From the IMG/VR virus record IMGVR_UViG_2513237163_000001, positions 3,708 to 67,707 of that record: a stretch of 64,000 nucleotides of DNA; one strand, written 5' to 3'. The notes beneath the pieces were generated by a model. The model was given only the letters and a program-made list of their open reading frames with translations. It was not told the origin of the DNA and made no database searches. This document shows positions 12,326 through 30,374 of this stretch, piece after piece. Positions within the stretch are counted from its first letter, which is position 1. Each line of letters opens with the position of its first letter. Made by a program: the position numbers and the translations under genes. Source of the DNA: a virus.

Positions 12326-12329
12326 GGAG

Positions 12330-12806: not shown

Positions 12807-12833
12807 TTCCGCCTTCGTGGCCGAATGAGCCGC

Positions 12834-12876
12834 ACTCTATCACGATACTTACCTGCGATAAGTATTACTTTCGCAA
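12834..12876 (-). promoter_or_regulatory. Operator-bearing promoter for the ejection operon
   Basis: Palindrome ATACTTA-N7-TAAGTAT (12845-12865). Minus strand has -35-like TTATCG (12861-12856), 16 bp, then -10 TAGAGT (12839-12834). Confidence 0.55.
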
Positions 12877-12879
12877 CAG

Positions 12880-13065
12880 TCAGGGCCCCTCCTCCACCTT
12901 CGGGTAGCGGTCCTTGACGGCCTTGATCGGCTCGTAGAATTCCGGCACCTTGGGAAACTCGCCGCGATCCATGGCGTGCCACAGCGCGTCAAGCTGGTCT
13001 TCCACGGGGAGATAGGCGGCTTTGCGCAGCGGCCCATGGTCGGGGCGGTGTCGGATGACTTTCAT
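12880..13065 (-). CDS. Small tail-fibre-associated protein (61 aa)
   Basis: MKVIRHRPDH..QLDALWH..VKDRYPK; coupled ATGA overlap with upstream gene. Confidence 0.6.
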   Translation of the reverse strand: MKVIRHRPDHGPLRKAAYLPVEDQLDALWHAMDRGEFPKVPEFYEPIKAVKDRYPKVEEGP

Positions 13066-13421
13066 GGAACGCTCACAGTGAAAGTGGCGTCGAGAACAGG
13101 GAAGGCCTCGACGGTGATCGTATGCTCGCCCGCCAGCAGGTCCAACTCGACAGCCGACTCGTCGTGCCCATACCGCTGGCCGTCGATGATGATGGTGCAT
13201 GGCACCGGCAGGCCGGTAAGGATTGTGCCGATCAGCGTTGCGGTGTTCTCGGGGCGCTCTAGGATTTCGCCGCCCGCGACGTAGTGGCGCAAGTCATCGC
13301 ATGCACCCACAATCACCGACTCGCCCGGATGGTTGGCTTGGATCTGCACCATCTCTTCAGGGCAGGAGCCATAGCGCAGAATTCGCCCGGCTCCGTTGTA
13401 GACCGCGTATTGCGAATTCAT
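13062..13421 (-). CDS. Tail-fibre assembly-like protein (119 aa)
   Basis: MNSQYAVYNGAGRILRYGSC; directly downstream of tail fibre, ATGA-coupled. Confidence 0.6.
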   Translation of the reverse strand: MNSQYAVYNGAGRILRYGSCPEEMVQIQANHPGESVIVGACDDLRHYVAGGEILERPENTATLIGTILTGLPVPCTIIIDGQRYGHDESAVELDLLAGEHTITVEAFPVLDATFTVSVP

Positions 13422-14950
13422 CGCTTCGTCTCCAGTAGTACGATTGAACGTTTGGCACTGGTGAAAGTGGCGCCTGTTGATCGAAACATCAGACTGTAAG
13501 TATGTGACCCACCACCGGGAGTGTCTGACAGCACCGCTGCAACTCTTGTCCAAGGGAGGCCGGCTGGATCGAGAAAGTTCTCAGCCCATATATTGGTTCC
13601 ATCTCTATCTAGCCACACCTCAATGATGTCGTCCGTCGCCGTCAAGCTGAAACTAATGAACACTGCGATAGGGGCGCCGGACGAGGTGATTGTGCAAGAC
13701 GCTTCGTTGAAAGTGCCTGAGCCGCGAGTCGATTCTGCCGCAGAGTACCCACTGACCGGGATCGTCACAGCATTGCCGGCGATCTTCAGGGTATTAACCT
13801 CTGCATCCCCGATCTTGGCGTAGGTGATCGCCGCGTCCGCAATCTTGGCCGTGCCGATATTTGCGTCGGCGATCTTCGCGGCAGTGACCTGCGCATTGCC
13901 GATCTTGGCATTGGTGATAGCGCCGTCGGCAATGTTGGCGGTGCCTACAGTGATGGTGCCGAGGTTGCCAGAGATCGCCGACAGCGACGTCACGCTGATC
14001 TTGTCCGCCGTGATGGCGCCCGCCGCCACCTTCCCCGCCGTCACCGCGCCAGCCGCCAGCACATCCGTGGTGACCGACCCCGCGGCGAGCTGCCCCGCGG
14101 TGATGCTGTTCGCCACCAGCTTATCGGCGGTGATGGTGTTGGCCGCGATCTTGTCGCCGGTGATTGTGCCCGCCTCAATCCGCGCCACATCGATGAAGCC
14201 CGCCGTGATCTTCTCGGCCGAGAGGTCCGCAATGCGCGCGTCATCGATGGCCGCCAGCCCGATCATGGCCCTGCCGATCGTGCCCACCTTGATGAAGGCG
14301 TCTCGGATGTACGTCCCCGCGGGCACCAGGTAGCCGTTGATGACGGTTGGCTCCGCCTGGATGACAAACGGCGTGGTGGAATCCCCCGTGAGGATGTCCA
14401 TCACATAGCCCGGGTCCAGGCTCGTCTGCCCCTGCGTGCCGGCCACGGCGTTGTAAGGCCCGACCACATTGGCCCGCGACACGGCGCGCACCCAGTAGTA
14501 GAGCGACCGCCCGCCCCCGACCGAATCCGCATAGACCTTTCCCGGCGTCATCCCGACGCGCGAGGCCAGGCCGAGGTCATCCACCTCTGCGCGCCAGATC
14601 TCCGTGTAGGCGTGGTTCGGGTAGGTGGGCTGCGTCCAGGTCAGCAGGATGCTGGCCAGCCCGCCGGTGGCCTCCAAGTCCGTGAGCGCAGGCGGCGGCG
14701 TGAGGTCGCCGAGGGCGTCAGGGTCGATGGAGATGCCAGGCAGCCCGCCGGGGCCGATGCCGCCCTGCCCCGGCAGCTTGACCGTGAAGCCATCCATGCC
14801 CTGCAGCATGCGCAGCGTGACCCCCATGTCCAGCTGATCGCCCCGCTGGCCATTGCGCACTTCCACCGCCTCCTTGAGCGCCGAGAGGAACCCGCGCAGC
14901 GCGGGCGAGGCATCCGTCGGGATTGCGCCGATCGAGGGGTTCTTAGACAT
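13418..14950 (-). CDS. Tail fibre / host-specificity protein (510 aa)
   Basis: Fn3-like segment (LLTWTQP..YTEIWRA..YYWVRAVS) followed by ITADKI/AKIAD short repeats typical of phage fibre shafts. Confidence 0.75.
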   Translation of the reverse strand: MSKNPSIGAIPTDASPALRGFLSALKEAVEVRNGQRGDQLDMGVTLRMLQGMDGFTVKLPGQGGIGPGGLPGISIDPDALGDLTPPPALTDLEATGGLASILLTWTQPTYPNHAYTEIWRAEVDDLGLASRVGMTPGKVYADSVGGGRSLYYWVRAVSRANVVGPYNAVAGTQGQTSLDPGYVMDILTGDSTTPFVIQAEPTVINGYLVPAGTYIRDAFIKVGTIGRAMIGLAAIDDARIADLSAEKITAGFIDVARIEAGTITGDKIAANTITADKLVANSITAGQLAAGSVTTDVLAAGAVTAGKVAAGAITADKISVTSLSAISGNLGTITVGTANIADGAITNAKIGNAQVTAAKIADANIGTAKIADAAITYAKIGDAEVNTLKIAGNAVTIPVSGYSAAESTRGSGTFNEASCTITSSGAPIAVFISFSLTATDDIIEVWLDRDGTNIWAENFLDPAGLPWTRVAAVLSDTPGGGSHTYSLMFRSTGATFTSAKRSIVLLETKR

Positions 14951-16562
14951 TGGCCAACTCCCCGATGCTGTTGGCGACAAAGACCGCCGTGACCGGGTTG
15001 GTGCCGGTCAGCTCAATCTCGCAGATGCTGTAGCGCCGCGGGGATGGCAGCTTGAAGGGCTCGCCGTTCGTGACGCTGCGCTCGTGCAGCAACGTGCCAT
15101 CGGCAAAGAGGCGGAACGTGACCGGGTAGGCCGTGGCCTTGACCTGCGCAACCGCAAAGTTGGACGGCTTGAGCAGCAGGAACTTCTTCGAGCGCCAGAG
15201 GTAGGTGAGCAGCGCCGCCCCGCTGGCGGCCCAGCGCTTGACCGTGTTTCCGACGGCGAGATACAGCCCGCCGCTGCGCAGATCGAAGTACCCTGCGGTG
15301 GCGTACAGGTCGATCTTGGTGAGCGGCGCGCGGCTGTCCTGCGGATCGAGGATGAATCCGCCCTGCACCGTGCCGGCGTCGTAGAAAGCGAAGTACTTCC
15401 CATCCCAGCCGTAGGCGTGGATCGAGGCCGGGTTGAGCGCGTCCCAGTCCTCCTGCGACAGCAGATCCTCGGTGAGCACCCGGGCCGTGCCGTTGCCGAT
15501 CAGGGCCAGGCCGTTCGGCGCGGCATAGATGACACCCGCATCCACCTTGACGATGGAGCGCGCCGAGATGCACGAATGCGGGAACGACTGGATCGGCTGG
15601 CCGGATAGCGAGGTGGTATCCGTGCCGGTGTAGGCGTAGGGGAAGCCATCGGTCAGCACGATCAGGGTCTGCTCGACCACCGCGCCGCCGATGATCTTGT
15701 GCGGCACGGAATCCCGCAGGCTCGAAGGCCACGCATAGCCCTTGTATGGCTTGCAGGCGCACACGTCCGAGCCAGAGAACCCGACCATCCCGCCATTGGG
15801 ATAGGCCAGCAGCCCGAACATATCCGCCGGCGGCATGTCGTTGTCGATCGCCGAGAGCGTCTCGCCCAGCGCAGTGCCGGCAACGTTGTCGGTAAAGGTC
15901 GTCTGCGCGGCCGGGATCTCGGCGACGAACAGCAGCGCACCGTTGTCCGCGCTTCGGTAGAGCCGCTTCGTCGTGATGTTGAACGCGCCCGACGGCGGCA
16001 GGTCCAGGCCCGACAGATCGACGGTCTGGCCCTCGTAGACGGAGACCACATTCGATGCCAGGCTCGGTGTGCCCTCCTCGCTCCAGCCGGTCACAAAGGT
16101 CATCACGTAGACGCGCGACTGCTTGACAGTGGTGGTCACGCCACCGGTGCCCTCGACAGCAACCGGGGCGGTATCCGGCGCCGGCACGCCGAGGGTGTAC
16201 GCCGCGACGGGATACCCGGTGCCGCCGGTGAGCGCCAAGGCCGAATCCGTGACCTTAGGCACCCCGTCACCCGTGAAGTACGTGCGCTCGGTGGTGTCGC
16301 CCGCCACCTGCCCGCGTACGGCATTGACGACCGTGGTCCAGTGGAACCAGAAGGTCGCATCGCCTACCACGTCCTGACCAAAGCGGTAGATTGACTTGAT
16401 CGGCCCAGGCTTGGAGAGCGTGGCAATGTCGGCCGTGCCAGCCCAGCCGCGCAGGTCGCCGCGATTGAAGCGGCAGTTCTGCGCAATCTGCGCCGCGTTG
16501 TCAGGCAACTCGGTCGGCTCGAACAGCGGCATGATACCGGTTGGGACTTTGATAGCGAGCAT
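14943..16562 (-). CDS. Tail hub/stabilisation protein (P22 gp10 / tubular protein B-like)
   Basis: 539 aa beta-rich protein in tail cluster; ends with the WRSKKF..EIELTG motif typical of this class. Confidence 0.65.
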   Translation of the reverse strand: MLAIKVPTGIMPLFEPTELPDNAAQIAQNCRFNRGDLRGWAGTADIATLSKPGPIKSIYRFGQDVVGDATFWFHWTTVVNAVRGQVAGDTTERTYFTGDGVPKVTDSALALTGGTGYPVAAYTLGVPAPDTAPVAVEGTGGVTTTVKQSRVYVMTFVTGWSEEGTPSLASNVVSVYEGQTVDLSGLDLPPSGAFNITTKRLYRSADNGALLFVAEIPAAQTTFTDNVAGTALGETLSAIDNDMPPADMFGLLAYPNGGMVGFSGSDVCACKPYKGYAWPSSLRDSVPHKIIGGAVVEQTLIVLTDGFPYAYTGTDTTSLSGQPIQSFPHSCISARSIVKVDAGVIYAAPNGLALIGNGTARVLTEDLLSQEDWDALNPASIHAYGWDGKYFAFYDAGTVQGGFILDPQDSRAPLTKIDLYATAGYFDLRSGGLYLAVGNTVKRWAASGAALLTYLWRSKKFLLLKPSNFAVAQVKATAYPVTFRLFADGTLLHERSVTNGEPFKLPSPRRYSICEIELTGTNPVTAVFVANSIGELANV

Positions 16563-16572
16563 AGGCAGCACC

Positions 16573-16603
16573 AAAGAAAAAGCCCCGCTCAGTGGCGGGG
16601 CTT
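16573..16603 (-). terminator. Rho-independent terminator
   Basis: AAGCCCCGC-CACTGA-GCGGGGCTT followed by U-tract on minus strand. Confidence 0.75.
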
Positions 16604-16622
16604 GGTGTGGGGCGGGAGGGGC

Positions 16623-16847
16623 TTAGGCGAGCGTGATAACCGGATCGCCGAGGGGGTTCGCCGGCGGCTCGGCGCTCTCTGCCCGCGCGGCAGCGACACG
16701 CTCGGCGAGGCTCTGATTGGCCGTCCCCTCGATCAGCGCGATCAGGCTGGTGATGTGCTCGCGCTGGCGGATCAGGCCTTGCAGGACGATGTTGACGTCG
16801 GCCGGCGAGAGGTCGGGCAGTGCAGCGAGGATGGGGGACTGGCTCAT
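16623..16847 (-). CDS. Hypothetical protein (74 aa)
   Basis: ATGA-coupled to upstream phosphoesterase; GGAGGG SD. Confidence 0.55.
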   Translation of the reverse strand: MSQSPILAALPDLSPADVNIVLQGLIRQREHITSLIALIEGTANQSLAERVAAARAESAEPPANPLGDPVITLA

Positions 16848-18013
16848 GCTGCACCCTCCGACAGCATTCCAACGTCGCAACGGTGCCGCTCGATCTCCCC
16901 GTGCTCGCGGTGATGCACGATCAGACGCATGTCGCGGCCGGCTCGATAGCCCTGCCCTGCGTGCCAGGCATCGCGCGCAGCCAGCGTGCGGAAATACTCG
17001 ACCACGCCGCCGCGGTACTCCTTGGAATCCTGGTGGTGGACGTGCCCGACATACCAATATCGGTGCCCCGTCTCACCCCAGTCCTGCGGGCGGTCGGCAG
17101 CCATCAGGCTCACCATGTCCGCGCCCTTGATCGTGTCGCCATGCGTCGAGCCGATCAGCACCTTGCCGAATCGGTAGTACCAAGCCACGGCCGGCGACAG
17201 ATCCACCTCCACGCGCGGCTCGTCGTGGAAGTAGCACGAGAGCATCAGCGCGAGCGCGTAGGACGAGTGCCCATCGTGGTTGCCGCGGTTGACGCGCACC
17301 ACCACCTTCTGGTGCCTTTCGAGCAGGCGGCGAACGCAGTAGAGCATCGCGCGCAGGCCGACTTGCTGGACCTTGGCCCAGCGCCCGTCCACATCGAGCT
17401 GGTGGCCGGATTGTGACTGGTTCTTCTGATTATCAGCATGGAATGCATCGCCGAGGTTCAGCAGCAATGCCGTCTTAGCGGGCGGCGCGCTGGCCACGAG
17501 GCGATCCACCGCGCTGCACGTAAGGCGCTCGGCAATGCTGAGGTCGAAGTCCTCTCCCGCGTCCTGCCACCAGGCGTACATGCCAAAGTGCGGGTCGCCC
17601 TGCGGGTAGACGCACAGCAGATCCTCGTCAGCCACCTTGGGCGGCTTCGTGATCGGCGCGAGGCCCTTGACGCCCTCGGCCATCGTAGCGGCGAAGTCCC
17701 GCATGATTTGCTCGAAGCGCTCCGGATCTTGGGCACTCTTCACCCACTGCCCGCGCGGCTTGCCTTCCTCGTCATAGTAGGTCGACACCCCCTTGACCAT
17801 GAACCCGTCGGGCACCGTACGGGTCATGGCGTGTTCCGGCGAATACCCCGCCTTCGCCGCCCGCTTCCGCAGCGCCACCATGGAGTCATTCACCGCAGTC
17901 TTGCCCACTCCCAAAGCCCTGGCCGCCTTCGTGCCGCTCCCGTGCTTCAGGATGGCCTCAAGATATTCCAGTTGCCGCGGTGTCGCCCACTCGCGCAGTC
18001 GGTCATCAATCAT
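16844..18013 (-). CDS. HTH + calcineurin-like metallophosphoesterase
   Basis: N-terminal HTH (GTKAARALGVGKTAV); GDPHFG, GDAFH, GNHD, HGD, GHVHH motifs. Confidence 0.85.
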   Translation of the reverse strand: MIDDRLREWATPRQLEYLEAILKHGSGTKAARALGVGKTAVNDSMVALRKRAAKAGYSPEHAMTRTVPDGFMVKGVSTYYDEEGKPRGQWVKSAQDPERFEQIMRDFAATMAEGVKGLAPITKPPKVADEDLLCVYPQGDPHFGMYAWWQDAGEDFDLSIAERLTCSAVDRLVASAPPAKTALLLNLGDAFHADNQKNQSQSGHQLDVDGRWAKVQQVGLRAMLYCVRRLLERHQKVVVRVNRGNHDGHSSYALALMLSCYFHDEPRVEVDLSPAVAWYYRFGKVLIGSTHGDTIKGADMVSLMAADRPQDWGETGHRYWYVGHVHHQDSKEYRGGVVEYFRTLAARDAWHAGQGYRAGRDMRLIVHHREHGEIERHRCDVGMLSEGAA

Positions 18014-18017
18014 GGTA

Positions 18018-18212
18018 TTAGCTGCTCAGTCGTTGGCGGAATTCACCGCAAGCGGGCGAGGACGGCTCGCACCTGGGAAACTGCTGGATGGGCTGATAGA
18101 GGTCATCGACCCCAAGAACAACAGGCGGATACCGGCGGCATTCGCCCAACTCCTTGCAGAAGTAGGCGCACGGGCCGCAGCTCGGCCGGGCTTCGGGCTT
18201 CTTGCGTGCCAT
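18018..18212 (-). CDS. Small Cys-rich phage protein (64 aa)
   Basis: CxxC..CRRYPP..CGEF pattern. Confidence 0.6.
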   Translation of the reverse strand: MARKKPEARPSCGPCAYFCKELGECRRYPPVVLGVDDLYQPIQQFPRCEPSSPACGEFRQRLSS

Positions 18213-18215
18213 GGC

Positions 18216-18440
18216 TCAGTCCGGCAGCGCAGCGTTCGCACCCACGCCCGGCTCGATCGACTTGACGCAGTGGTCCGCCTGGAACCAGTTGAGGAAGCGG
18301 CAGAGCACGCAGCCCCAGCGCTTTTCCTCGCGCATGGCCTTACCGGCGCGGCTTGAAATCGTCTCGTCCGGGTCGCCGCCGAGCACGGCATTGGCGCCCT
18401 GGTCGAGGGCGATGAGCAGGTTCCAGAGGTATCGGCGCAT
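18216..18440 (-). CDS. Conserved phage protein with DPDETISSR motif (74 aa)
   Basis: ATG 18440 with AAGGAG SD; LDQGANAVLGGDPDETISSRAGK..DHC. Confidence 0.7.
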   Translation of the reverse strand: MRRYLWNLLIALDQGANAVLGGDPDETISSRAGKAMREEKRWGCVLCRFLNWFQADHCVKSIEPGVGANAALPD

Positions 18441-18461
18441 GGGCGTCTCCTTTTGGGCATG

Positions 18462-18483
18462 AAAAAACCGCCCGAAGGCGGTT
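18462..18483 (-). terminator. Rho-independent terminator
   Basis: AACCGCC-TTCG-GGCGGTTTTTT on minus strand. Confidence 0.8.
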
Positions 18484-18623
18484 GAGGGGGAATCGTAGGC
18501 CGGTCTGCCTATCCGGGCAGCACGGTAACCGGCTTTGGGGTTGGTAGAGATGCTAGTGGTGGGAGGGGCAATTCGAGTCGCGCGGCGCAAAAGGTCGCGC
18601 CCAGAAGGCGAACATATCCCACC

Positions 18624-18632
18624 TGCTATGAT
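18624..18632 (+). promoter_or_regulatory. Extended -10 promoter for the moron
   Basis: TG-C-TATGAT about 30 nt upstream of an ORF with GAGGA SD. Confidence 0.45.
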
Positions 18633-18661
18633 CCCTCGCTCGAACAATGCGAGGAAAAATG

Positions 18662-18889
18662 ATGCTTTCGGCTATATGGAGGCTGCTCGATCTTGCACGG
18701 TCGACACAGCATGGTCCCGCACCCACAGCCCCAACGATGCAATGCGAGCAAGCCTTTTTTGATGGTGTGCGAGCGTTTTACGCAGGCCTACGCAAGGCAG
18801 ATAACCCCTACTGGCAAGGAAGACCTCATCTACGGCAGGCCTGGGACAACGGATACGAATACAGCGATTGCCTCGCTCGACCGTGGTGA
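18662..18889 (+). CDS. Rmf/CrpP-like small protein (75 aa)
   Basis: AFFDGVRAFYAGLRKADNPY..AWDNGY matches the G..A...G.....PY..W..G pattern of ribosome-modulation-factor-like proteins. Confidence 0.5.
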   Translation: MLSAIWRLLDLARSTQHGPAPTAPTMQCEQAFFDGVRAFYAGLRKADNPYWQGRPHLRQAWDNGYEYSDCLARPW

Positions 18890-19077
18890 CTGTAGATGCT
18901 CAATTCGAGTTCAGGCCGATCGCATGCAATCCCCCACTTGGAAGGGATTGATGCATTGAGCACACAGGTAGAATCCCTTGTGGCGCACGACGAAACCAGA
19001 AATGCGCGCCGATTCAAGACCAGAACCTCAAGGGTGAGCTGGTACAAAAACGGATCACAACAAATAGGGGTCCATCA

Positions 19078-20262
19078 ATGCAGAAAATTATCGCGCGCCT
19101 TGGTGAAACCAGAGAGGGTGGGCGCGTCCGACGCCAACTGAATTTCTCGCATGGTGAGATCTGGTGGGACATCTCTGGACCCGATGAAGCCCTACCGCCG
19201 CCATTGAGTCGCCATGACATGGCGGCGACCGCTTTGATTTTCAAAGCGATGCACATCGGCCATTCGCTTCACATTGATGGCCCTGTATCCTCGTCGCTGC
19301 TGGAAAACCTCGAAAACTTCGTAGCAAGCTGGGCAGTCTGGCGCCCTGACCTGTATAAGCGCGTGGGCATCACCGCCACCGAGATTGTCCGGGACGATCA
19401 GCCGGCCGCCGGCGCAACCGGCAAAGCTGTAGCAGCATTCTCCGGCGGAGTTGACGCATCCTTTACCCTCCTTAGGCACGCGAGGGGTGATGTTGGGTTG
19501 CGCAGCAAGAATCTTGTCGCAGGCGTCCTCATTCAGGGGCTGGACATTCCGCTAGACAAGAACGACGCCTTTGACAAGGCCGCCATCTCTGCGGCCGACA
19601 GTCTTCGATCACTTGACGTTCCCTTTGCAACGGTGCGGACAAACTGGAAGTCGGTAGCGTGCACTCAATGGGAGATGGAGTTCGGCACCGCCGTGGCAAC
19701 TTGCCTCCGGAATTGGCTCGGTAAGGCCGACACCGCCCTCATTGGCTCCGATGAAGACTACTCCCGCCTTGTTCTTCCATGGGGCGGAAATCCCATCACC
19801 TATTCAATGCTCTCCTCGCGAGACCTCACGGTCGTTTATGACGGCGGCGAGTTTGCGCGCACGGAGAAGGTCGAATATCTTAACTCCTGGGCCGCAGGCG
19901 TGCGCAATTTGCGCGTTTGCTGGGAAGGCCCGATCACCGGCGAAAACTGCGGATACTGCGAGAAGTGCGTGCGCACCAAGATGAACTTCCTTGCCGTCGG
20001 CGCAAGGCTGCCTGCGTCACTGCCCGGCCATCTGACGCCATGGCGAGTGTTGAACGTTCGCGCGGGGAACGACGGCCAGGTCGCACTCCTCAGCGAGATC
20101 TACGACATCGCAAAAGACAGGCAGATTGACGCGCCTTGGGTCACGGCTCTCCACTACTCACTGACCAAGAATCGCCTCATGAACTCCGCGCGCCGCTTCA
20201 AAATCCTCAAGTCGGCTTGGAAATTTACCAAGTCTCTAGGGCTAAGACCGGCCACACAGTGA
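19078..20262 (+). CDS. PP-loop (AANH) ATPase with QueC/MurL-like Zn motif, polysaccharide-cluster type
   Basis: AFSGGVDAS PP-loop; PWGGNP; LRVCW..NCGYCEKCVRT. Confidence 0.75.
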   Translation: MQKIIARLGETREGGRVRRQLNFSHGEIWWDISGPDEALPPPLSRHDMAATALIFKAMHIGHSLHIDGPVSSSLLENLENFVASWAVWRPDLYKRVGITATEIVRDDQPAAGATGKAVAAFSGGVDASFTLLRHARGDVGLRSKNLVAGVLIQGLDIPLDKNDAFDKAAISAADSLRSLDVPFATVRTNWKSVACTQWEMEFGTAVATCLRNWLGKADTALIGSDEDYSRLVLPWGGNPITYSMLSSRDLTVVYDGGEFARTEKVEYLNSWAAGVRNLRVCWEGPITGENCGYCEKCVRTKMNFLAVGARLPASLPGHLTPWRVLNVRAGNDGQVALLSEIYDIAKDRQIDAPWVTALHYSLTKNRLMNSARRFKILKSAWKFTKSLGLRPATQ

Positions 20263-21707
20263 ATAGGAAGTCGCTATCTGCGGCGGTCCCGTGGGCGGCA
20301 TTTGATGCCGTCGCGGCTGCCGCTCTCAACCTGTTCACGATTGCCCTGCTCTCAAAAATCCTCAGCCCCCGGGATTTTGGGCTGGTCGTCCTCGCGCAGT
20401 CCGTCGTCGCAGTTGTCCAGCTCGTGGGTGGGCTCGGGCTTCAAGACGCCATTGTTCAGCGCAAGCAGATCGACCAGGCATGTCAGGACAGCGCCTTCAC
20501 GACATCAAGCGTCATGGGGCTCGTCGGCTCCGTCGTCTGCGCGCTAATCGCCGCCATTCTCGCTAGGGCGGGCCAGGACACAACGCTTTGCTACGTGATC
20601 CTGGTGGAAGGCCTATCCTGCACGCTTGTTGGCATCGCCACGCTGCCAACCGCGATCCTCACGCGCTCCTTGCGGACGAGCACTCTGGCGAAGCGCACTC
20701 TCGTTGGGCGACTGTCCTATCTGCTTGTCGCGACACTTCTCGCGCTGTCGCATTGGGGGCTATGGAGCATCGTCATTGCCAATGCGGTGCAAAACCTTAT
20801 CTGCACCGCAATGGTATGGCTATCTATCGAGAACAAGCCGAAGCTGCGATTCTCATGGGCGCACACGAAAGGCCTCATTGCGTTCGGCGCCCCCGTCATG
20901 CTTGAGGGAGTTCTATGGTCCGTTCTGACGCGCGTTTTCAACGTCCTGGTGGCCAGATACCACGGCCTTGATGCGCTCGGGTTCCTCAACATGGCAATGA
21001 GGGCCACCGACGCTCTTGCCGGGATAGTCCAGTCCGTATGTAGCAAGGTTGCCCTGCCGATGCTCTCGCAGCATCAGGATGACCCGGGGCGACTTCGCCT
21101 CTCGTTCATGCGGGCTACGGAACTGCTCTCCTTCATCTCTTTTCCGGCCTTCCTCGGGCTTGGCGTCACCTCTGACCTGTGGGTGCCTCTACTCCTCGGG
21201 CAGCAGTGGTCCAATGCCGTGCCGGCGGTTCAGTTGCTATGCGTGTACTGGGCCGTCATGCTTGCGCGGATGTTTGTCGCATACTGCCTGCGCGCCGTCG
21301 GGAAGACCACTGTCTACCTACTTCCAGCGGGAATATCTGCCATCACAACAGTGGCCGCGGTAATCCTCATGTCCGGTATGGAGCCCATCTATACGGTCTA
21401 CGCTTGGGCGGGCCGCCTCATCATCACCGTGCCGATCGGGGCGTATTTGCTCCTTCGCTTTACCAGCATTGATTACCGGAGCCAGTTTTCTCCACTGGTG
21501 GGGCCAGCATTTTGCTCTGTCCTTATGATCGCGGCGATCGTCTGGCTCCGGCATTCATACACGCCCGCCAACAGCTACTACCTGCTCCTCGCAGAGATTC
21601 TGATCGGCATGCTGTCATACGCCGTGGTTGCCGCAGCGTATTACCACAGGCTTACGTCGCAAGCGGCCCGCGCCCTGCGGGCGCGATTCTTAGCCAGTGC
21701 TAACTGA
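20259..21707 (+). CDS. wzx: Wzx-type polysaccharide flippase (MOP superfamily, 482 aa)
   Basis: GTG at 20259 coupled to upstream TGA; many hydrophobic segments; LSKILSPRDFGLV, GLQDAIVQRK, LGQQWSNAVP motifs. Confidence 0.85.
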   Translation: MNRKSLSAAVPWAAFDAVAAAALNLFTIALLSKILSPRDFGLVVLAQSVVAVVQLVGGLGLQDAIVQRKQIDQACQDSAFTTSSVMGLVGSVVCALIAAILARAGQDTTLCYVILVEGLSCTLVGIATLPTAILTRSLRTSTLAKRTLVGRLSYLLVATLLALSHWGLWSIVIANAVQNLICTAMVWLSIENKPKLRFSWAHTKGLIAFGAPVMLEGVLWSVLTRVFNVLVARYHGLDALGFLNMAMRATDALAGIVQSVCSKVALPMLSQHQDDPGRLRLSFMRATELLSFISFPAFLGLGVTSDLWVPLLLGQQWSNAVPAVQLLCVYWAVMLARMFVAYCLRAVGKTTVYLLPAGISAITTVAAVILMSGMEPIYTVYAWAGRLIITVPIGAYLLLRFTSIDYRSQFSPLVGPAFCSVLMIAAIVWLRHSYTPANSYYLLLAEILIGMLSYAVVAAAYYHRLTSQAARALRARFLASAN

Positions 21708-23126
21708 TTTGAGAATCAGTCGGCGCGCAATAAGGTCGCTCACCTTGAACGTTACAAGCGCTCCGGCTGACACCGTGAGTGGCGATGCACGCCCACCGAG
21801 ATCAATATTCCCCGAATTTCCGAAGGCCTGGGTAGTTTGGCCTCCATTCGCAATCAGTCGAATCGTAAGCTCCTGATTTGGTAGCATCTCGCAACTGATG
21901 TTGTTGATCTGCGTTGCAGAGCACTGAACCGCGGGAAATTCCGTGTGGCCGGTGATTAGCGTATCGGATGTTGCGGCTGCAAGCTGCTTGGTAATGCCGC
22001 TAGAACGTCCAACGAGCGCAGTTCCAGAAATCGTGTTCGGCCTCGGGTAGAAATACAAGACGTTGCTGCCGATGGCGATCTCATCAAAGGCACCGAGAAT
22101 GGTATTGCCACCGAATTCGGCGCCAACCGCATTCCCCATATACAAAAGGTAGCCGCTGCCATCTCCTACGGAGCCTGCATTGGCAAATCGGTTTCGCTCC
22201 ACGACATGCCCAACCCCCCCGCCATCCAATCGGACGGATTCTGCCAAGTTCTCAAACCAGTTGTCATCCACATGCACCTGACTGGCGCCATAGACATCGA
22301 TGGCTCGTCTCGCATTCTGGAAGGTGCACTTGTTCTTGAACGTCACATTGCCAGGGAAGACGGTATCCGTGCTCCGACCGTGTCGGGCAATCGTTCCAAC
22401 CCGGTTCGTGCTCACCCGATTTTGCAGGGTGCACGAATCAAAGGTCACCTGCCCGTGCTGCCCCCGCATGTCCAGGGCGTAGCCGGTCGTGCCCTCAACG
22501 TTCACATCGACGTCGATGAAGTTGACGAACTGTTGCGGCAGCAGTGCGCTATTGTCTAGTGTGCCAATGGACTGGATGCCGTTGTCAAAGAAGTCGATCT
22601 GGATGTCAGAGAACGACGAATTCCATAGTCCGCCGGCATTACCCTGAGCCGCTAGTGGCTGCGCGACGAACTGCATAGCAAAGCATCCGGCATTGGTGGG
22701 CGCCCCTGCCGATCCACCTACCATCCGATAGCTACTATCATTTAGGAACTGGATGGCACCGGGCACAAGCTTCTGCATGCCCCCAGCCAGGCCAGCTGCC
22801 GCAATGAACTGTGTAGCTCGCGCACCCTGCCCGAACATTGATACGTAGGCTTGCCGGAGAATGGACGAAGCGATGTAGAAACTTTCGTCGGAGAACTCGA
22901 GAGCCCAGCCTGTAAAGTTGTTGTGGTTGTGGAGGAATAGCAGCGCAGCGTTGATCTCCACGTCATCAGCGACCCCGTCACAGATGACGTCGCAGCCCGA
23001 GCCTTGGCGCCCAACGGTATAGCGCATGCGCCTGCCAATCTTTGTCCCGTCGGGGAACTGGGCATATTTTTGTTGTCGGCCACTATCGGTCCCGACTCGC
23101 GCGCTGGGAGCGTCAAGGATTGACAT
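21690..23126 (-). CDS. Tailspike-like right-handed beta-helix (pectate-lyase/GH28-like) protein
   Basis: CDGVADDVEINAAL N-terminal motif, G/N-rich beta-helix repeats, in tail gene operon. Confidence 0.75.
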   Translation of the reverse strand: MSILDAPSARVGTDSGRQQKYAQFPDGTKIGRRMRYTVGRQGSGCDVICDGVADDVEINAALLFLHNHNNFTGWALEFSDESFYIASSILRQAYVSMFGQGARATQFIAAAGLAGGMQKLVPGAIQFLNDSSYRMVGGSAGAPTNAGCFAMQFVAQPLAAQGNAGGLWNSSFSDIQIDFFDNGIQSIGTLDNSALLPQQFVNFIDVDVNVEGTTGYALDMRGQHGQVTFDSCTLQNRVSTNRVGTIARHGRSTDTVFPGNVTFKNKCTFQNARRAIDVYGASQVHVDDNWFENLAESVRLDGGGVGHVVERNRFANAGSVGDGSGYLLYMGNAVGAEFGGNTILGAFDEIAIGSNVLYFYPRPNTISGTALVGRSSGITKQLAAATSDTLITGHTEFPAVQCSATQINNISCEMLPNQELTIRLIANGGQTTQAFGNSGNIDLGGRASPLTVSAGALVTFKVSDLIARRLILKSVSTG

Positions 23127-23134
23127 ACATCACC

Positions 23135-23983
23135 TCACGAAATAGTAATGGCCGGCTGCACAGTGACAGAGCCGTTGGCGTCGCGCGTCACAGCGGGTTG
23201 CGTGACGGTCTTGGTCGTGGTGCCGAAGTAGGTCACGTGGTACGCATCAATGGCAGGCGTCACGCCATTGACAGCATCCGTTGTGAATACGCCGCTGGTG
23301 CCGTCCGGCCAGGTGATATTGGCCGACAACAGCACGTTATTGCTGTCGCGCGTGACGCTGGATAGCGAAGCGAACGAGCTACTGGCCACCCATGCCTTCA
23401 GTCGCATGTTCAGCCAGAATCCGGTGAGATAGTCCCGAATCTTGGCGACCGTCGTCTGCAGTAGACCAGCCCCACGACTAGCCGGGATCGTTTCCGCGCC
23501 GGTCAGCGTGCCGGCGTCCGTGGCGGTGCCGTTGGCGATGGCGGAATTCGCTGCGGCAGCTGCAGCAGCGGAGCCGGCTGCGGCTGCGGCGGATGTTGCC
23601 GCATTGCCGGCCTGTGTGGTTGCCGTGCCGGCCTGACTGGTTGCAGTCGTCGCTGATGTGGTAGCGCTAGCGGCTTGGGTTGTCGCAATGCCAGCCTGTG
23701 CGGTCGCCGTGTCGCGCGCCGTCTCAGCACCTTGGCGCGCGGCTACCGCCTGCGTGGCACTTGCCGCCGAGTCACTCTTGCTCTGCGCTGAGGCGATTTG
23801 GCTGGCGCCAGCCGCGTCACGCGCCGTAGCGGCGGCGGTACTGGCTGCGCTTGCTGTGGCGGCAGACGCTGCGGCGGCCTCCGCGAGGGAAACGCGCTCC
23901 AGGTATTTGAGGTTGGCCTCAGATTCCGCGAAAGTAGGCGTCCGCCCGAGGTCGCCGCGAAGCAGGAGGTGATCGGTTTCCAT
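23135..23983 (-). CDS. Tail fibre/adapter with Ala-rich repeats
   Basis: Stf-like Ala/Ser/Thr repeats, beta-rich C-terminal domain. Confidence 0.65.
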   Translation of the reverse strand: METDHLLLRGDLGRTPTFAESEANLKYLERVSLAEAAAASAATASAASTAAATARDAAGASQIASAQSKSDSAASATQAVAARQGAETARDTATAQAGIATTQAASATTSATTATSQAGTATTQAGNAATSAAAAAGSAAAAAAANSAIANGTATDAGTLTGAETIPASRGAGLLQTTVAKIRDYLTGFWLNMRLKAWVASSSFASLSSVTRDSNNVLLSANITWPDGTSGVFTTDAVNGVTPAIDAYHVTYFGTTTKTVTQPAVTRDANGSVTVQPAITIS

Positions 23984-24001
23984 CGAGTCTTCCGTGGTGG
24001 G

Positions 24002-25087
24002 TTACAGGCTGCCGTAGGCGGTGAGCACCCAGGCCGCGCCGTCATAGGTGGCGCGAGCCCATTGGCCGGGGTTCAGGTACTTCAGCGCAGCGACACCCAC
24101 CAGATCGGCGCCAGCCGCGGCAGCGGTGCGGGTGACATGCACGCGATCACCAGTCGCCGGGTTCGTCGTGTTCAGGGTGACGGTGCGCGGCGCAGTGATC
24201 GCTACGTCATAGATGACAGTGGTATCGACCACTCGCCCGGTGGTCACGTCGGCATTACCTGGCTTCGTGACGGTCGGCACGATCGTGCCGGCACTTGCCG
24301 CCGCAGCCGCGGCGCTCGCTGCCGCCGCCGTAGCACTCGCCGCAGCATTCCCTGCCTGCGTCGTTGCAGTGGTTGCTGAACCTGCGGCTGCCGTTGCGCT
24401 GCCCGCTGCCGCCGTGGCGGAGGCCGCGGCATTGCCGGCCTGCGTCGTGGCCGTGGCGGCGCTGCCCGCCGATGCCGTCGCCGAGCCCGCCGCAGCCGCG
24501 GCCGATCCGGCTGCATTCCCCTCAGACGTCGCCGCATTCACCCGCGACGCCTCCGAGGCATTGGCACTGGTAGTAGCGGACTGCGACGAAGCGAGGGCTG
24601 CTGCAGCTTGGGTACCTGCACTGGCGGCGCTACCTGCCCCTGCCGTGGCACTTCCTGCGGCTGCAGTCTGTGCGGCTTGCGCTGCTACCTTGGCTGCGGT
24701 GGCTTGGCCCACCAGGTCGGAGGCCAACCCGCTCACCTCTTCAAAGAACTGCTGGAAGTCCGCCTTCGGCTCTGCAACCAACTCGGCAATCTCATCGAGA
24801 TTGGCCGACGGCGCATCCGGGACGACAGCCAGCGCGCTATAGGCCTTGAGCCCGCCCGTCGGCGAAATCTTGATCTTGTACGAGGAGCCCGCCGCACCAA
24901 GGACGTTCGGGAACAGGCTCAGCGTGCATTCGCCAAAGGCATCGGTCACGCCCTCCACTTCGCGCGGCACCGCGAAGCCTTGGTAGATCTCATACCGGTC
25001 CAGCTTCGCCGTGACCTTGGCACCGACAACTGCCTGGGCGCCCTGGTCATAGAGCCGCACGAGGACGGCGCATGTTGGAATGCTCAT
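24002..25087 (-). CDS. Side tail fibre-like protein
   Basis: N-terminal anchor-like domain then ATTQAGNAAASATAAAGS repeats (lambda Stf-like). Confidence 0.7.
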   Translation of the reverse strand: MSIPTCAVLVRLYDQGAQAVVGAKVTAKLDRYEIYQGFAVPREVEGVTDAFGECTLSLFPNVLGAAGSSYKIKISPTGGLKAYSALAVVPDAPSANLDEIAELVAEPKADFQQFFEEVSGLASDLVGQATAAKVAAQAAQTAAAGSATAGAGSAASAGTQAAAALASSQSATTSANASEASRVNAATSEGNAAGSAAAAAGSATASAGSAATATTQAGNAAASATAAAGSATAAAGSATTATTQAGNAAASATAAAASAAAAAASAGTIVPTVTKPGNADVTTGRVVDTTVIYDVAITAPRTVTLNTTNPATGDRVHVTRTAAAAGADLVGVAALKYLNPGQWARATYDGAAWVLTAYGSL

Positions 25088-25098
25088 GGGGTCTCCAG

Positions 25099-25740
25099 TT
25101 ATCGGCCGAAGCGCACCGAATAGACGGTGCCGGTACCGCTCACGCCGTCGTTGAGGCGGTCCGCGCTGGCCTTGTCGCGCTCAGTCACGTAGAGGGTTTC
25201 GTGGTAGCCCGCCTGCTCCGCGCTGCTCCAGGCCTTGCTCGGCATCGCCATCAGATCGGCCTTGGCGCGCTCCAGCACGGCCCGGCGCCAGCGCGAGGCG
25301 ATCGCATCGGGGATGGTGGTTGCCGTGGCCTTGGGCTTGAGCGCCACGCGCACGGTCAGCGCCAGATCGGCGCCGGCATTGAGCGGGATCGGATAGAGGC
25401 GAAGCTCGCCCCACGTGACCATGTTGTAGAACCGCGGCGCGCCCGTGGCCGTCTGCCAGGCGGCAAAAATCCGGGAGATCTCCGGCACGGTCTTGGCCGT
25501 CAGTTCCACGCCCGGCGCCCACACCTCTCGGACCATCACCAGATCGGCGCCGGTGGGCAGGTCCAACTCATAGACCGCCTTGTTGTCGAACACCAGAATG
25601 GGGTCAAGCCACTCCATCCACGCTTGGGTGTCTTCGCAGAACTTGATTGCCGCCTGCACCACGGCGCGGCGCACCGTGAATTCCGGGCAGGACTCCACGT
25701 CTGCCATGATGTCTGGCAGGAAATCGTCAATCGCAGCCAT
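25099..25740 (-). CDS. Head-tail adaptor / tail tubular protein
   Basis: 213 aa, AVVQAAIKFCEDT motif, position after capsid module. Confidence 0.6.
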   Translation of the reverse strand: MAAIDDFLPDIMADVESCPEFTVRRAVVQAAIKFCEDTQAWMEWLDPILVFDNKAVYELDLPTGADLVMVREVWAPGVELTAKTVPEISRIFAAWQTATGAPRFYNMVTWGELRLYPIPLNAGADLALTVRVALKPKATATTIPDAIASRWRRAVLERAKADLMAMPSKAWSSAEQAGYHETLYVTERDKASADRLNDGVSGTGTVYSVRFGR

Positions 25741-25743
25741 GGA

Positions 25744-26532
25744 TTACCTCGCGGCGGCGGGCACGGCCGGGTTGAGCGGCAGCACCTGCAAATTCGGGTT
25801 GTTCCCGGTCAGGGCCTGCACCTGGGAATTGAGCGAGGACAGGAACATCGACGCGAACGTGTTGGCCAGGCCAGCGTTGGTCGCGTATTCCGAGTCCTTC
25901 ATGTAGGCGCGGGCAACGACGTAGTTCACGAGGTCATCGAGATACTTGTCGTCCACGCCAATGACCCCGGCGTCGCTCCCATCCTTGCCATAGCGAGGCG
26001 TTCCGGACGTGCCGGTATTGGGGATGGGTGCCGGGTTGGCGAGATAGCTCGCCTCGACCCACATCGCCGGCGAGGCCGGGACTGCGGGGTAGACGTAGAA
26101 GTACTTGGGCGTGCGCGGGTCGTAGACGAATGCCTCGACCTTCGCGCCCGTGGTCGTGTGCCAGTTCGGGTTCTGCGCGTCCAGCACGTCGCGCGAGATC
26201 ACGCGGATGGCGCGGCCCGGCGTGAGACCGTCGGCGCCCATGTTGCGGACGAGCTCGTTCAGCGCATTGCCGTGGACGGTGGCCGGCGTCGAACCGTCAC
26301 CGGGCTTGACGTCCGTGCTCGCAATCGTGTCGAGCGATTGCTTGGTGCCCTGCTTCAGCTTGATCGCATCAACGCGGGCCCCGGCGATCGGGAGATACTT
26401 GGCGATGGCCACCTGCCCGTCATCGAGCCAGCCGACCAGCTCACGCTCGGTCCAGCGCACGAATTGCGGCTCGGCGTCCAGCAGCAGCGTGGAGACGCGA
26501 AAGAGCGCGTCACGGATGAGGACAGATGGCAT
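25744..26532 (-). CDS. Head-tail connector protein (DUF6682-like)
   Basis: RWTERELVGWLDDGQ..LVNYVVARAYMKDSE motifs typical of N4-gp56-capsid phages. Confidence 0.65.
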   Translation of the reverse strand: MPSVLIRDALFRVSTLLLDAEPQFVRWTERELVGWLDDGQVAIAKYLPIAGARVDAIKLKQGTKQSLDTIASTDVKPGDGSTPATVHGNALNELVRNMGADGLTPGRAIRVISRDVLDAQNPNWHTTTGAKVEAFVYDPRTPKYFYVYPAVPASPAMWVEASYLANPAPIPNTGTSGTPRYGKDGSDAGVIGVDDKYLDDLVNYVVARAYMKDSEYATNAGLANTFASMFLSSLNSQVQALTGNNPNLQVLPLNPAVPAAAR

Positions 26533-26544
26533 CGCCGCGGCTCC

Positions 26545-26928
26545 TTACTGCACTGCGCCGTGGTACGAGTAGGCGAAGCGCGGGACGCTGCCCCTCACGA
26601 TGCCTTCCTTCGTGTGGGTGTAGGTATCCTGCACAGCGTTCTGCAGGATCTCCAGAACCTCGACGGGAATCTCGACCATCGCATTGCGGTGGATCGAGTA
26701 GGCGTAGCCGTTGAGCGAGATGTCCACAGGCAGTTTGCCCATGTCGTCGGCGCCGCTATGGATCGTGATTCGGGCCTTGCGGCCGCACAGTTCAACGTCG
26801 TGGCCGACGCTCTTGACGGCGACGGGCGGGACGTTCGGGGTACCGGCCTGCACGCCAGCCGGCGCGGTTGCCATCTGGTCCTCCAGGTCGATGACGGTCG
26901 AATCGGTATTGGTGGGGGTCTTTGCCAT
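26545..26928 (-). CDS. Virion-associated hypothetical protein (127 aa)
   Basis: ATG 26928, GAGG SD; VDISLNGYAYSIHRNAMVEIPVEV..PRFAYS. Confidence 0.6.
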   Translation of the reverse strand: MAKTPTNTDSTVIDLEDQMATAPAGVQAGTPNVPPVAVKSVGHDVELCGRKARITIHSGADDMGKLPVDISLNGYAYSIHRNAMVEIPVEVLEILQNAVQDTYTHTKEGIVRGSVPRFAYSYHGAVQ

Positions 26929-26948
26929 GGTGTTGCCTCTCGTCAATG

Positions 26949-27014
26949 AAAAAACCCGCTTGCGCGGGCTTGGTGGGTGAAGCGGAAATGAAAAACCCCG
27001 CAGGAGCGGGGCTT
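26949..27014 (-). terminator. Two tandem rho-independent terminators
   Basis: AAGCCCCGC-TCCT-GCGGGGTTTTT (26991-27014) and AAGCCCGC-GCAA-GCGGGTTTTTT (26949-26971). Confidence 0.8.
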
Positions 27015-27018
27015 GGGG

Positions 27019-27978
27019 TTACGGCATGTCAGGCCAGTGCCTGTTGTGCTTTCTCAGGTTGTCAGGCCCGGAAAGAACCTGCAGGTTGAACTCGTTATGC
27101 AGGCCGCAGACGATCTTGCTTATCAACGGCACGATGTGGTCGACGTGGTGAACGATGCCGGTCTGCTTCGAGATGCATTGCGCCTCGGCGTAGAACCGTC
27201 GAACCTTCACAAGGTTTGCCCATGCGACTGCAGCATTGCGTTTGGCAGCACGGCGCCGCGCCAGTTTCTCGTTCTCCTTCTCCGCGGACTGACGGGTGTA
27301 TCTCTTGCCAGTTGCGGATACAAAGACACGACCCTCACCTGTCCACATGGGGTTCTTGTCACCGATCATTCTCGCTGACCGCCTTGCGATCGCATCGGGA
27401 TCGGCACCACGACACTCATGGGAGCAGTAGATTCGCCGGCCAGCGTGGCACTCATGTTCCCTAAACTGCTTGCCGCACCATTTGCATGTGAGCGTCTGAA
27501 TCTCGCCATCGCGGCCGTTGTAGGCCTTGCGAATCTTGTAGCCACACTCAAGCGAGCAGGTGCGAACATGACTGAGGCTCGGAGGCAGACTGAACTCCTT
27601 CCCGCACGCCTCACAATCACGAGTCGTTGCTGCCTTGTTGCGCGCATACATGCACGCCTTTGAGCAGTAATCCCCCTTGTCGCTCGCCTTGGGCCGGAAC
27701 TTGGTGCCACATGTTTTGCACTCACGCTCAACCCGGCGGTTCTGTACCACGTGCCAGCATGCCTTCGAGCAGTACAGGCCCGCTCGCGCCGTTGGGTCGA
27801 CGCGGAACGTCACGCCGCAGTGGGCGCATTCACGATGCAACTCCGGACGGCGCGGCTTATACCTGCACGCGTTCGAGCAATTCAGCTTCGGATCGCCTGG
27901 CCTGGCAACATAAAAGGCCGCTCCGCACGTCTTGCACTGACGTTCAATTTTCCCTTTCGGGGCCTTCTCTTCCGCCAC
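27019..27978 (-). CDS. HNH endonuclease with five tandem Zn-finger repeats
   Basis: Five CxxC-x12-14-CSxxC repeats; C-terminal HHVDHIVPL..CGLHNEFNLQVL..DNLRKHN; GTG start. Confidence 0.85.
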   Translation of the reverse strand: MAEEKAPKGKIERQCKTCGAAFYVARPGDPKLNCSNACRYKPRRPELHRECAHCGVTFRVDPTARAGLYCSKACWHVVQNRRVERECKTCGTKFRPKASDKGDYCSKACMYARNKAATTRDCEACGKEFSLPPSLSHVRTCSLECGYKIRKAYNGRDGEIQTLTCKWCGKQFREHECHAGRRIYCSHECRGADPDAIARRSARMIGDKNPMWTGEGRVFVSATGKRYTRQSAEKENEKLARRRAAKRNAAVAWANLVKVRRFYAEAQCISKQTGIVHHVDHIVPLISKIVCGLHNEFNLQVLSGPDNLRKHNRHWPDMP

Positions 27979-28012
27979 AGATTCCCTCCACCATTGCAGG
28001 CGGAGGGAATCT
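27979..28012 (-). promoter_or_regulatory. SD-sequestering hairpin upstream of HNH gene
   Basis: AGAUUCCCUCCGCC-UGCAAU-GGUGGAGGGAAUCU then GUG start; 14 bp with one G-U. Confidence 0.75.
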
Positions 28013-28056
28013 TATGTCACGCGCCTTTATGCTTCAAGACGCATGGATACAACACC

Positions 28057-29666: not shown

Positions 29667-29669
29667 GGC

Positions 29670-29969: not shown

Positions 29970-29979
29970 GGTTCGCTCC

Positions 29980-30357: not shown

Positions 30358-30374
30358 GTTGGGTTCCTTGAAGA

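Follow-up and report, generated by a model that had tools for sequence, protein, structure and literature searches.

A phage-borne PP-loop enzyme and Wzx flippase beside a tailspike gene: a candidate lysogenic-conversion cassette in a Bcep22-like prophage

The locus and its prophage setting

Two overlapping plus-strand genes, here called A and B, were analysed in a stretch of 64,000 nucleotides (nt) of viral DNA (positions 3,708 to 67,707 of IMG/VR record IMGVR_UViG_2513237163_000001). The whole of this stretch is called the window, and positions are those of the window unless a contig is named. The window corresponded to C344:14598-78597, inside a 156.5-kb contig of a 7.86-Mb host genome with 65% GC. 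Gene A encoded a soluble PP-loop enzyme and gene B a flippase of the Wzx type (Table 1). Both were intact in the open reading frame (ORF) listing, and the minus-strand virion operon faced them. On the right flank, the minus strand carried the genes of a beta-helix protein, a minor tail protein and a tail fibre. Farther to the right, structural proteins, the major head protein, the portal and the terminase were recognised by PHROG matches. The left flank held a small ORF, a phrog_704 exonuclease and an internal virion protein (phrog_511, E 9e-149), followed farther out by a tail fibre, a phosphoadenosine phosphosulfate (PAPS)-reductase-like gene and a giant gene for a polyvalent protein that resembles DarB and exceeds 2,660 residues. 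This agreed with the order in Burkholderia phage Bcep22, namely pectin-lyase tailspike, tail fibres, internal virion protein, PAPS reductase and DarB-like giant. Because the gene order matched, the element was identified as a Bcep22-like prophage in which A and B were inserted just downstream of the tailspike gene. Judged by the PHROG matches and synteny, the region is the structural part of this integrated prophage. A search around the prophage for an integrase and for direct repeats of attachment (att) sites gave only chance-level repeats of 15-20 nt, and the ends were not defined in this way.

The base composition set the two genes apart from the phage core. GC was 0.54-0.60 across 18500-23250, compared with 0.64-0.69 in the flanks. 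GC at third codon positions (GC3) was 0.68 in A, 0.73 in B and 0.64 in the tailspike gene, against 0.82-0.87 in core phage genes. The tailspike gene and B were convergent, and their 3' ends overlapped by 18 nt. A, the Wzx gene and the adjacent pectate-lyase-like tailspike gene form one low-GC cassette. On the scale of contig C344, a low-GC block extended from about 30 to 95 kb.

A preliminary description of this DNA had proposed two coupled plus-strand genes of lower GC set against the tail operon, and had read them as a phage moron encoding a Wzx flippase and a PP-loop (AANH-superfamily) enzyme without a glycosyltransferase. The ORFs, their GTGA overlap and the GC values bore out the first point, and the Bcep22-like synteny and PHROG matches the second. 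The assignment of the two proteins also held (PF13440 E 3e-65 for the flippase; an invariant SGGxD motif for the enzyme). No match to glycosyltransferase families 2 or 4 (GT2, GT4) or to Acyl_transf_3 was obtained in the window, in which Wzy was not searched separately over the whole length. The start of B had been placed at TTG 20136, which was too early. Homologues and profile matches began at GTG 20259, and the start was corrected to this position.

Table 1. Features of the cassette and its immediate surroundings (window positions)
Feature	Position	Strand	Evidence or remark
Gene A, soluble PP-loop enzyme, 394 residues	19078-20262	+	ORF, homologues, AlphaFold 2 (AF2) model
PP-loop of A, SGGVD, S122-D126	19441-19455	+	SGGxD ATP-binding motif
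Cys4 motif of A, C281...C291-x2-C294-x2-C297	19918-19968	+	QueC-type, predicted Zn; E295, K296 and R299 invariant
GTGA overlap of B start and A stop (TGA), 4 nt	20259-20262	+	Sequence; layout expected for translational coupling
Gene B, Wzx-type flippase, 482 residues	20259-21707	+	PF13440, PF01943, NF007773
Right-handed beta-helix, pectate-lyase-like tailspike (predicted), 478 residues	21690-23126	-	Weak Pfam Beta_helix match; ESM Atlas; GC 0.56
Tail protein, 282 residues, N-terminal adaptor-like	23135-23983	-	phrog_8780 'minor tail protein' E 5e-9; tblastx with L094
Tail fibre	24002-25087	-	
Small ORF, 80 residues	18647-18889	+	PF04957 RMF E 2.7e-5, 24.6 bits against cut-off 27.9; in GC minimum
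Terminator-like hairpin, T6 run	18466-18483	-	Left cassette edge; pattern match only

Gene A encodes a PP-loop enzyme with a QueC-type cysteine motif

The database gene call of A gave a protein of 347 residues starting from a later methionine (19219 instead of 19078). The 394-residue form was supported because homologues align from about residue 2-4 of that frame. The N-terminal domain of A is thus probably incomplete in the public annotation. The full protein consisted of an extra N-terminal domain (about residues 1-110), the PP-loop core, the Cys4 motif and a basic C-terminal helix. Conservation was evaluated with an alignment of 34 homologues of 40-69% identity. S122, G123, G124 and D126 of the PP-loop were invariant, as were H134, D156, R261 and R279. 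GMP synthase and QueC aligned with the SGGVD stretch through their own PP-loops. With the SGGxD motif present and all fold matches being PP-loop enzymes, A belonged to the PP-loop ATP pyrophosphatase (AANH) superfamily. It also carried the four-cysteine motif of QueC (PF06508), C-x(8-9)-C-x2-C-x2-C, and all four cysteines were invariant in the alignment.

Profile searches did not assign A to a named family. No Pfam or NCBIfam family was matched (NCBIfam to E 0.1). At lax thresholds, only weak QueC and DUF6395 matches over the Cys motif were obtained, and these occurred in 31-32 of the 34 relatives. A faint match to phrog_1550 'QueC-like' covered the same Cys-motif part only. In a sequence search against PDB chains, A and its profile gave nothing but PP-loop-motif matches at E >0.03.

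The fold was examined with an AF2 model (predicted local distance difference test 93, predicted template modelling (TM) score 0.90). Foldseek against the PDB returned QatC first (E 5e-5), then LarE, QueC, MnmA, Cap9 and ArtA. Against AFDB Swiss-Prot, the first three matches were to MurL over the full length (E 5e-9 to 9e-8), and numerous QueC entries came next. In the ESM Atlas, MurL clusters reached a TM score of 0.68 to A. Scores of 0.7-0.8 were obtained with fold clusters of AFDB that bore the name 'PP-loop superfamily ATPase' or the automatic name QueC. What the nearest characterised folds have in common is the ATP-dependent activation of a substrate carboxylate, which most of them adenylate. 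Enzymes of the QueC family adenylate a carboxylate and make amide links, including protein conjugates in defence (PMC13279940, 10.1101/2025.04.06.647259). A had no transmembrane segment, and its tail had a net charge of +6. Such a basic tail would suit a peripheral membrane enzyme.

Gene B encodes a Wzx-type flippase

B was matched by PF13440 (Polysacc_synt_3) with E 3e-65 and 220.8 bits, far above the curated cut-off of 23, and by PF01943 (Polysacc_synt) with E 3e-22 and 79.7 bits. It contained 12 hydrophobic segments, in line with the approximately 12 transmembrane segments of Wzx/MOP flippases. From the profile matches and these segments, B was therefore assigned as a Wzx-type flippase. Like the WzxC-type flippases of colanic acid and exopolysaccharide (EPS), it matched NF007773 'MOP flippase' over its full length. 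It differed from them in that the score of 171.7 bits was below the WzxC equivalog cut-off of 273, and in that it was phage-encoded and dissimilar to the flippases of its host. The host has several of these, but the phage Wzx gave no tblastn match to them at E 1e-5.

Relatives of the pair in phages and bacterial chromosomes

The history of A was investigated with a quick maximum-likelihood tree (IQ-TREE) in which branches were evaluated by the SH-aLRT support test. The A of the window grouped with that of L094, a phage fragment from a Logan metagenome (support 99). Sister to these two were chromosomal copies of Herminiimonas, Oxalicibacterium and Methylotenera, in a clade of 12 rows (support 99). 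Pairs of A and Wzx genes had been suggested as something to look for in bacterial loci and other phages, and both were found. In 10 Oxalobacteraceae and Methylotenera EPS loci, the two genes were co-directional and overlapping, and stood at the end of the operon. L094 had the layout of the window, that is, A, an overlapping Wzx gene and a convergent gene for a 1107-residue Phage_tail_beta/Beta_helix protein. The stop/start overlap was also kept, with 4 nt in Herminiimonas and 1 nt in L094.

Protein identity between the window and L094 was about 69-70% for A and 68% for Wzx. The ratio of nonsynonymous to synonymous substitutions (dN/dS) was about 0.10 for A and 0.06 for Wzx, with dS saturated. 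These values indicated that the pair is conserved under purifying selection. The tail genes beside the pair behaved differently. The convergent tail gene of L094 (L094:3473-6796) encodes a single protein, whereas the window has two genes there, the 282-residue anchor and the 478-residue beta-helix protein. The anchor end was conserved between the two (tblastx), and the distal receptor-binding part was swapped while A and Wzx were retained.

More distant intact A ORFs were found without Wzx in IMG/VR contigs. All of them had the PP-loop, and all except L089 had the Cys4 motif. Their neighbours were an integrase and baseplate J in L086, a phage tail protein in L087, a tail-tip protein in L088 and a pectate-lyase-like tail protein in L090. 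At least 4 origins of phage-borne copies were needed on the tree. The solitary occurrence of A in other phages suggested that A is the effector and Wzx a lineage-specific accessory. A gave no match in a tblastn search of 50,697 phage records, and tblastn with the tail fibre gene likewise gave none. A blastn search with 17001-25000 returned only short matches, which lay outside the cassette.

The adjacent tailspike was compared with structure clusters of the Atlas. It showed a feature match of 0.97 to a viral Pect-lyase_RHGA_epim cluster and a TM score of 0.66 to 'Tail spike protein' clusters. Its product is a probable polysaccharide depolymerase and receptor-binding protein. Since the neighbour of the pair is a pectate-lyase-like tailspike, recognition of a surface polysaccharide by the phage is probable.

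The A family is linked to polysaccharide loci

The A family was large and spread over many phyla. At least 685 close homologues were present among scored candidates, and the family comprised 8,189 clusters at 50% identity (E <=1e-3), 2,303 of them at <=1e-30. Gene context was evaluated in 89 loci, consisting of 80 kept from a scan of GTDB species genomes (570 relatives confirmed), the viral and phage loci, and the window. A flippase, pyruvyl transferase or GT2 gene occurred within 6 kb of the A-family gene in 57 of the 89 loci. Among the 89, 30 loci had a pyruvyl transferase gene (PF04230) at up to 5 kb, 18 had one at up to 300 bp, and 18 had a Wzx gene at up to 300 bp. Fusions pointed in the same direction. 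All 11 longer homologues found (751-1260 residues) carried PF04230, and their PP-loop and cysteine residues were kept. An Atlas cluster of 635-residue proteins, 96% of which had PF04230, gave a TM score of 0.83 to A. By these fusions and adjacencies, the family was linked in function to the pyruvylation of polysaccharides, in which a carboxylate is introduced. Since the commonest partner was pyruvyl transferase, the likely target of the family is a glycan carboxylate, either a pyruvate ketal or a uronate.

DUF6395 (PF19932) resembled the A family in this respect. It gave weak matches in 32 of the 34 members and is likewise associated with polysaccharide pyruvyl transferase. A itself scored only 12.7 bits against the cut-off of 25, and the copy in the window was phage-borne and coupled to Wzx instead of pyruvyl transferase.

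Two further kinds of neighbour were observed. A second PP-loop protein of about 600 residues (Asn_synthase/QueC-like) lay within 5 kb in 15 of the 89 loci. In several cyanobacterial loci (L043, L038, L050 and L065), the A-family gene was flanked by tandem GT2 genes, by the gene of this 600-residue protein and by that of an HSP90/HATPase-like protein of 665 residues, which is unusual in a polysaccharide locus.

The host genome

A was single-copy in the host genome. Searches of 36 further species of the host genus and of 24 further families of the order did not find it. Since A is single-copy and was not found in these relatives, it was concluded that the prophage brought it in. The host has its own polysaccharide loci. 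The locus on contig C348 (L105, 3484-15653) encodes a low-molecular-weight phosphatase, a Wzc kinase, a flippase, a pyruvyl transferase, a GT4, a Wzy-like protein, a GT2, a further GT4 and WbsX. It is a Wzx/Wzy-dependent EPS or capsule locus and a candidate source of the substrate of A. Further polysaccharide loci, which likewise offer candidate substrates, were located on contigs C311, C113 and C14. In the C14 locus, a weak QueC PP-loop match (22.2 bits) was seen at C14:55592-55765 within a frame of 754 residues. This frame resembled the Asn_synthase/QueC-like protein of about 600 residues found near A-family genes in the 15 other loci.

Proposed function

The reading that we favoured, at slightly better than even confidence, is that the pair is a lysogenic-conversion cassette of the Bcep22-like prophage. 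It would retailor the Wzx/Wzy-dependent surface polysaccharide of the host through adenylation and amidation by A together with the Wzx flippase. In the proposed mechanism, A acts as a cytoplasmic and probably membrane-peripheral enzyme that would use ATP to adenylate a carboxylate on the undecaprenyl-diphosphate-linked repeat unit. The carboxylate would most likely be a pyruvate ketal, as the family association suggests, or else a uronate. The adenylate would then be resolved by a nitrogen nucleophile, either ammonia or an amine or amino acid, giving an amide and removing the negative charge. The coupled Wzx would flip the altered unit, for which the native flippase may be poorly suited, and Wzy, Wzc and Wza of the host would build the modified polymer. 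The altered glycan would be expected to be a poorer substrate or receptor for tailspikes of the pectate-lyase type, including that of the cassette itself, and superinfection exclusion or serotype conversion would follow. The substrate, the product, the action on the lipid-linked unit, the expression in lysogens and the effect on adsorption are parts of this scheme that we infer.

The preliminary description had offered a similar interpretation, in which the enzyme amidates or aminoacylates the lipid-linked unit and the flippase exports it, changing the receptor. Its link to polysaccharide was supported by the neighbourhoods, the fusions and the repeated capture of A by phages next to tail fibre genes. 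Its general PP-loop enzyme was narrowed to a QueC/MurL-like family.

In its position, the cassette resembled known serotype-conversion modules. These are represented by GtrABC of P22 and SfX, Oac of Sf6, and the Wzy proteins of D3 and Acinetobacter baumannii phages (PMC4815439, PMC9241936). They are accessory genes of temperate phages near tailspike or tail fibre genes and alter a Wzx/Wzy-dependent receptor glycan; here too, accessory genes of a prophage abut the tailspike gene, with the same layout in L094. The gene content differed. The GtrA, GtrB and GtrC proteins, the acyltransferase and the polymerase inhibitor of the known sets were lacking from the window, where GT2, GT4 and Acyl_transf_3 were searched for (Wzy had no separate search of the whole window), and a cytoplasmic PP-loop enzyme with a full-size Wzx stood in their place. 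This combination was not found described in the literature search. The search also brought up no paper on the A family, none that connects pyruvyl transferases to enzymes of the PP-loop or QueC-like kind, and none on a phage Wzx accompanied by an enzyme of that kind. Lysogenic conversion by surface-glycan change is thus known, and what is undescribed is the gene set of an unnamed QueC/MurL-like enzyme with a phage Wzx. The phage setting is new.

A functional analogy for the reaction that A may carry out is provided by enzymes of O-antigen loci. WbpS (AsnB-type) and the 'N-acetyl sugar amidotransferase' PP-loop family of WbpG/PseA/LfnA are ATP-pyrophosphatase-type enzymes that produce amides or amidines from acidic or acetamido groups. 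A matched none of these families in NCBIfam or Pfam to E 0.1. It also differs from them in its N-terminal domain and Cys motif and in having no glutaminase partner.

More tentatively, and at well below even confidence, the A family as a whole might be a new class of glycan-tailoring enzymes. It would adenylate the carboxylates of pyruvate ketals or uronates on lipid-linked repeat units and convert them into amides or amino-acid amides. Temperate phages would have recruited it several times, here with a dedicated Wzx, as a hitherto unrecognised route of serotype conversion that neutralises the charge on which their own lyase-type tailspikes depend.

Several points weighed against the favoured reading. 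To our knowledge, no natural polysaccharide has been reported with an amidated pyruvate ketal. The Wzx-coupled clade, including the phage copies, had no pyruvyl transferase within 10 kb, so that the pyruvate ketal as target is an extrapolation based on other clades. The structural matches to characterised proteins were modest (TM scores 0.35-0.68, 13-16% identity), and MurL, which came closest over the full length, is an epimerase that forms no amide. Expression evidence was sought in four runs (X1-X4) filed as RNA-Seq (reverse transcription PCR selection), apparently from another organism. For window positions 11001-31000 they gave contigs of 110-125 kb, identical to this genome and at uniform depth, and were rejected because the contigs were DNA-like, probably from genomic DNA of this bacterium or mislabelled libraries. 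A scan for sigma-70-like promoters upstream of A gave no candidate; promoter counts did not exceed those of shuffled sequence, and 65% GC makes such a scan uninformative.

Alternative explanations

The strongest alternative keeps the module and its purpose and changes the chemistry. Here A would be an ATP-dependent epimerase like MurL, or would resemble LarE, QueC or ArtA in forming thio or nitrile groups, and would act on an acidic or amino-acid substituent of the repeat unit. We considered this unlikely, although the structural comparison argued for it. MurL was the best full-length match, and its N-terminal domain and PP-loop core could be superposed on those of A over the full length (residues 2-365 on 10-448, E 5e-9, Foldseek TM scores 0.49/0.44). 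LarE and ArtA were also among the fold matches. MurL consumes one ATP and releases AMP without making an amide, and adenylation of the carboxylate on a UDP-sugar peptide has been proposed for it (PMC8788868). However, the identity between A and MurL was 13-15%, and the MurL families MurL_N and MurL_epimerase_C (PF26298/PF26299) were matched by none of the 34 family members, even at E 10. The Cys4 motif of the A family is of the type seen in QueC, which forms amides, as do QatC and Cap9. In addition, A had no MurD2 partner, and the neighbour clusters that were checked contained no recurrent ligase like MurD2 and no recurrent enzyme that adds amino acids. The context was that of EPS and flippase genes and not of peptidoglycan.

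A further possibility, which we rated as rather improbable, is that the pair is lysogenic-conversion cargo that benefits the host without excluding phages or masking a receptor. The change in EPS would then serve biofilm formation, desiccation tolerance or interaction with plants or animals. The chromosomal homologues, which end ordinary EPS operons of free-living Betaproteobacteria, were consistent with such a role. In at least 5 phage contexts, however, A had a tailspike or tail fibre gene as its direct neighbour. The low-GC cassette is moreover shared with the tailspike, which is the classic position of receptor-modifying genes. Both observations favoured receptor modification over host benefit alone.

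It was very improbable, in our estimate, that A is a QueC-family modifier of nucleic acid or protein with the Wzx as an unrelated neighbour. It would take part in 7-deazaguanine modification of DNA, or in deazaguanylation of the QatC/Cap9 type in defence. QatC was the top PDB fold match and Cap9 was listed, and there was the faint phrog_1550 match. A shared SGGxD and C-x9-C-x2-C-x2-C with QueC, QatC and Cap9, and QueC (3bl5) gave a TM score of 0.66 by target. Homologues of QueC are known to take part in the modification of phage DNA (PMC6884629). Against this, A reached 12.4 bits where the PF06508 gathering score is 22, over the Cys motif only (residues 276-305), and 31 of the 34 relatives were similarly weak. 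Its extra N-terminal domain and basic tail also set it apart. The partners of the 7-deazaguanine pathway were missing, as no gene of the tRNA-guanine transglycosylase (TGT)/DpdA family occurred in the window. The only one of the genome was on contig C125, and the canonical host QueC was on contig C113. No PADLOC model, QatABCD and type IV CBASS included, matched A, B or the four neighbouring ORFs. The neighbours in the 57 loci described above were flippases, pyruvyl transferases and glycosyltransferases, all fusions found were with PF04230, and a recent survey of the QueC family mentions neither polysaccharides nor MurL (PMC13329287).

The idea that the pair is a passively captured fragment of an EPS locus, functionless in phage or lysogen, fits its atypical GC and GC3 and its nearest non-phage relatives, the last two genes of betaproteobacterial EPS operons, but was just as hard to credit, since both ORFs are intact with all family-invariant residues and the coupling overlap, L094 keeps the pair at about 70% identity with dN/dS of about 0.1, and other phages acquired the enzyme independently.

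Significance of the proposed conversion

Phage-driven changes of surface polysaccharides shape serotypes, the host range of phages, and the targets of vaccines and phage therapy. The known conversion toolkits are few, namely glucosylation, acetylation and polymerase swaps. Under the lysogenic-conversion reading, the cassette points to another route, in which a cytoplasmic ATP-dependent tailoring enzyme would be delivered together with a matching flippase. The enzyme family, in which fusion to a pyruvyl transferase is frequent, comprises thousands of uncharacterised proteins of polysaccharide loci from many phyla. A two-gene module together with a defined EPS locus of the host offers a compact system for finding the reaction of the A family. 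The same system could be used to probe the idea that Wzx specificity must co-evolve with the decoration of the repeat unit.

Other features near the cassette

The segment 16844-18460 on the minus strand, which separates the tail genes from the gene of the internal virion protein, contained a 144-residue ORF and a gene for a phrog_704 'DNA repair exonuclease'/metallophosphoesterase (E 3e-108). Bcep22 has only tail fibre genes at this place, and the segment was therefore regarded as a second insertion in the same slot. The exonuclease was also tried as a synteny anchor and was dropped because the gene is too widespread.

The 80-residue ORF upstream of A was Rmf/CrpP-like. It may be a third moron gene and the first of the plus-strand unit, although this assignment is uncertain. 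Upstream of A, L094 had two small plus-strand ORFs with no clear homology to it. The strong terminator-like hairpin stood directly before the ATG of a minus-strand gene (18026-18460). Late transcripts of the tailspike gene would cross the moron in antisense and would end at this hairpin unless antiterminated.

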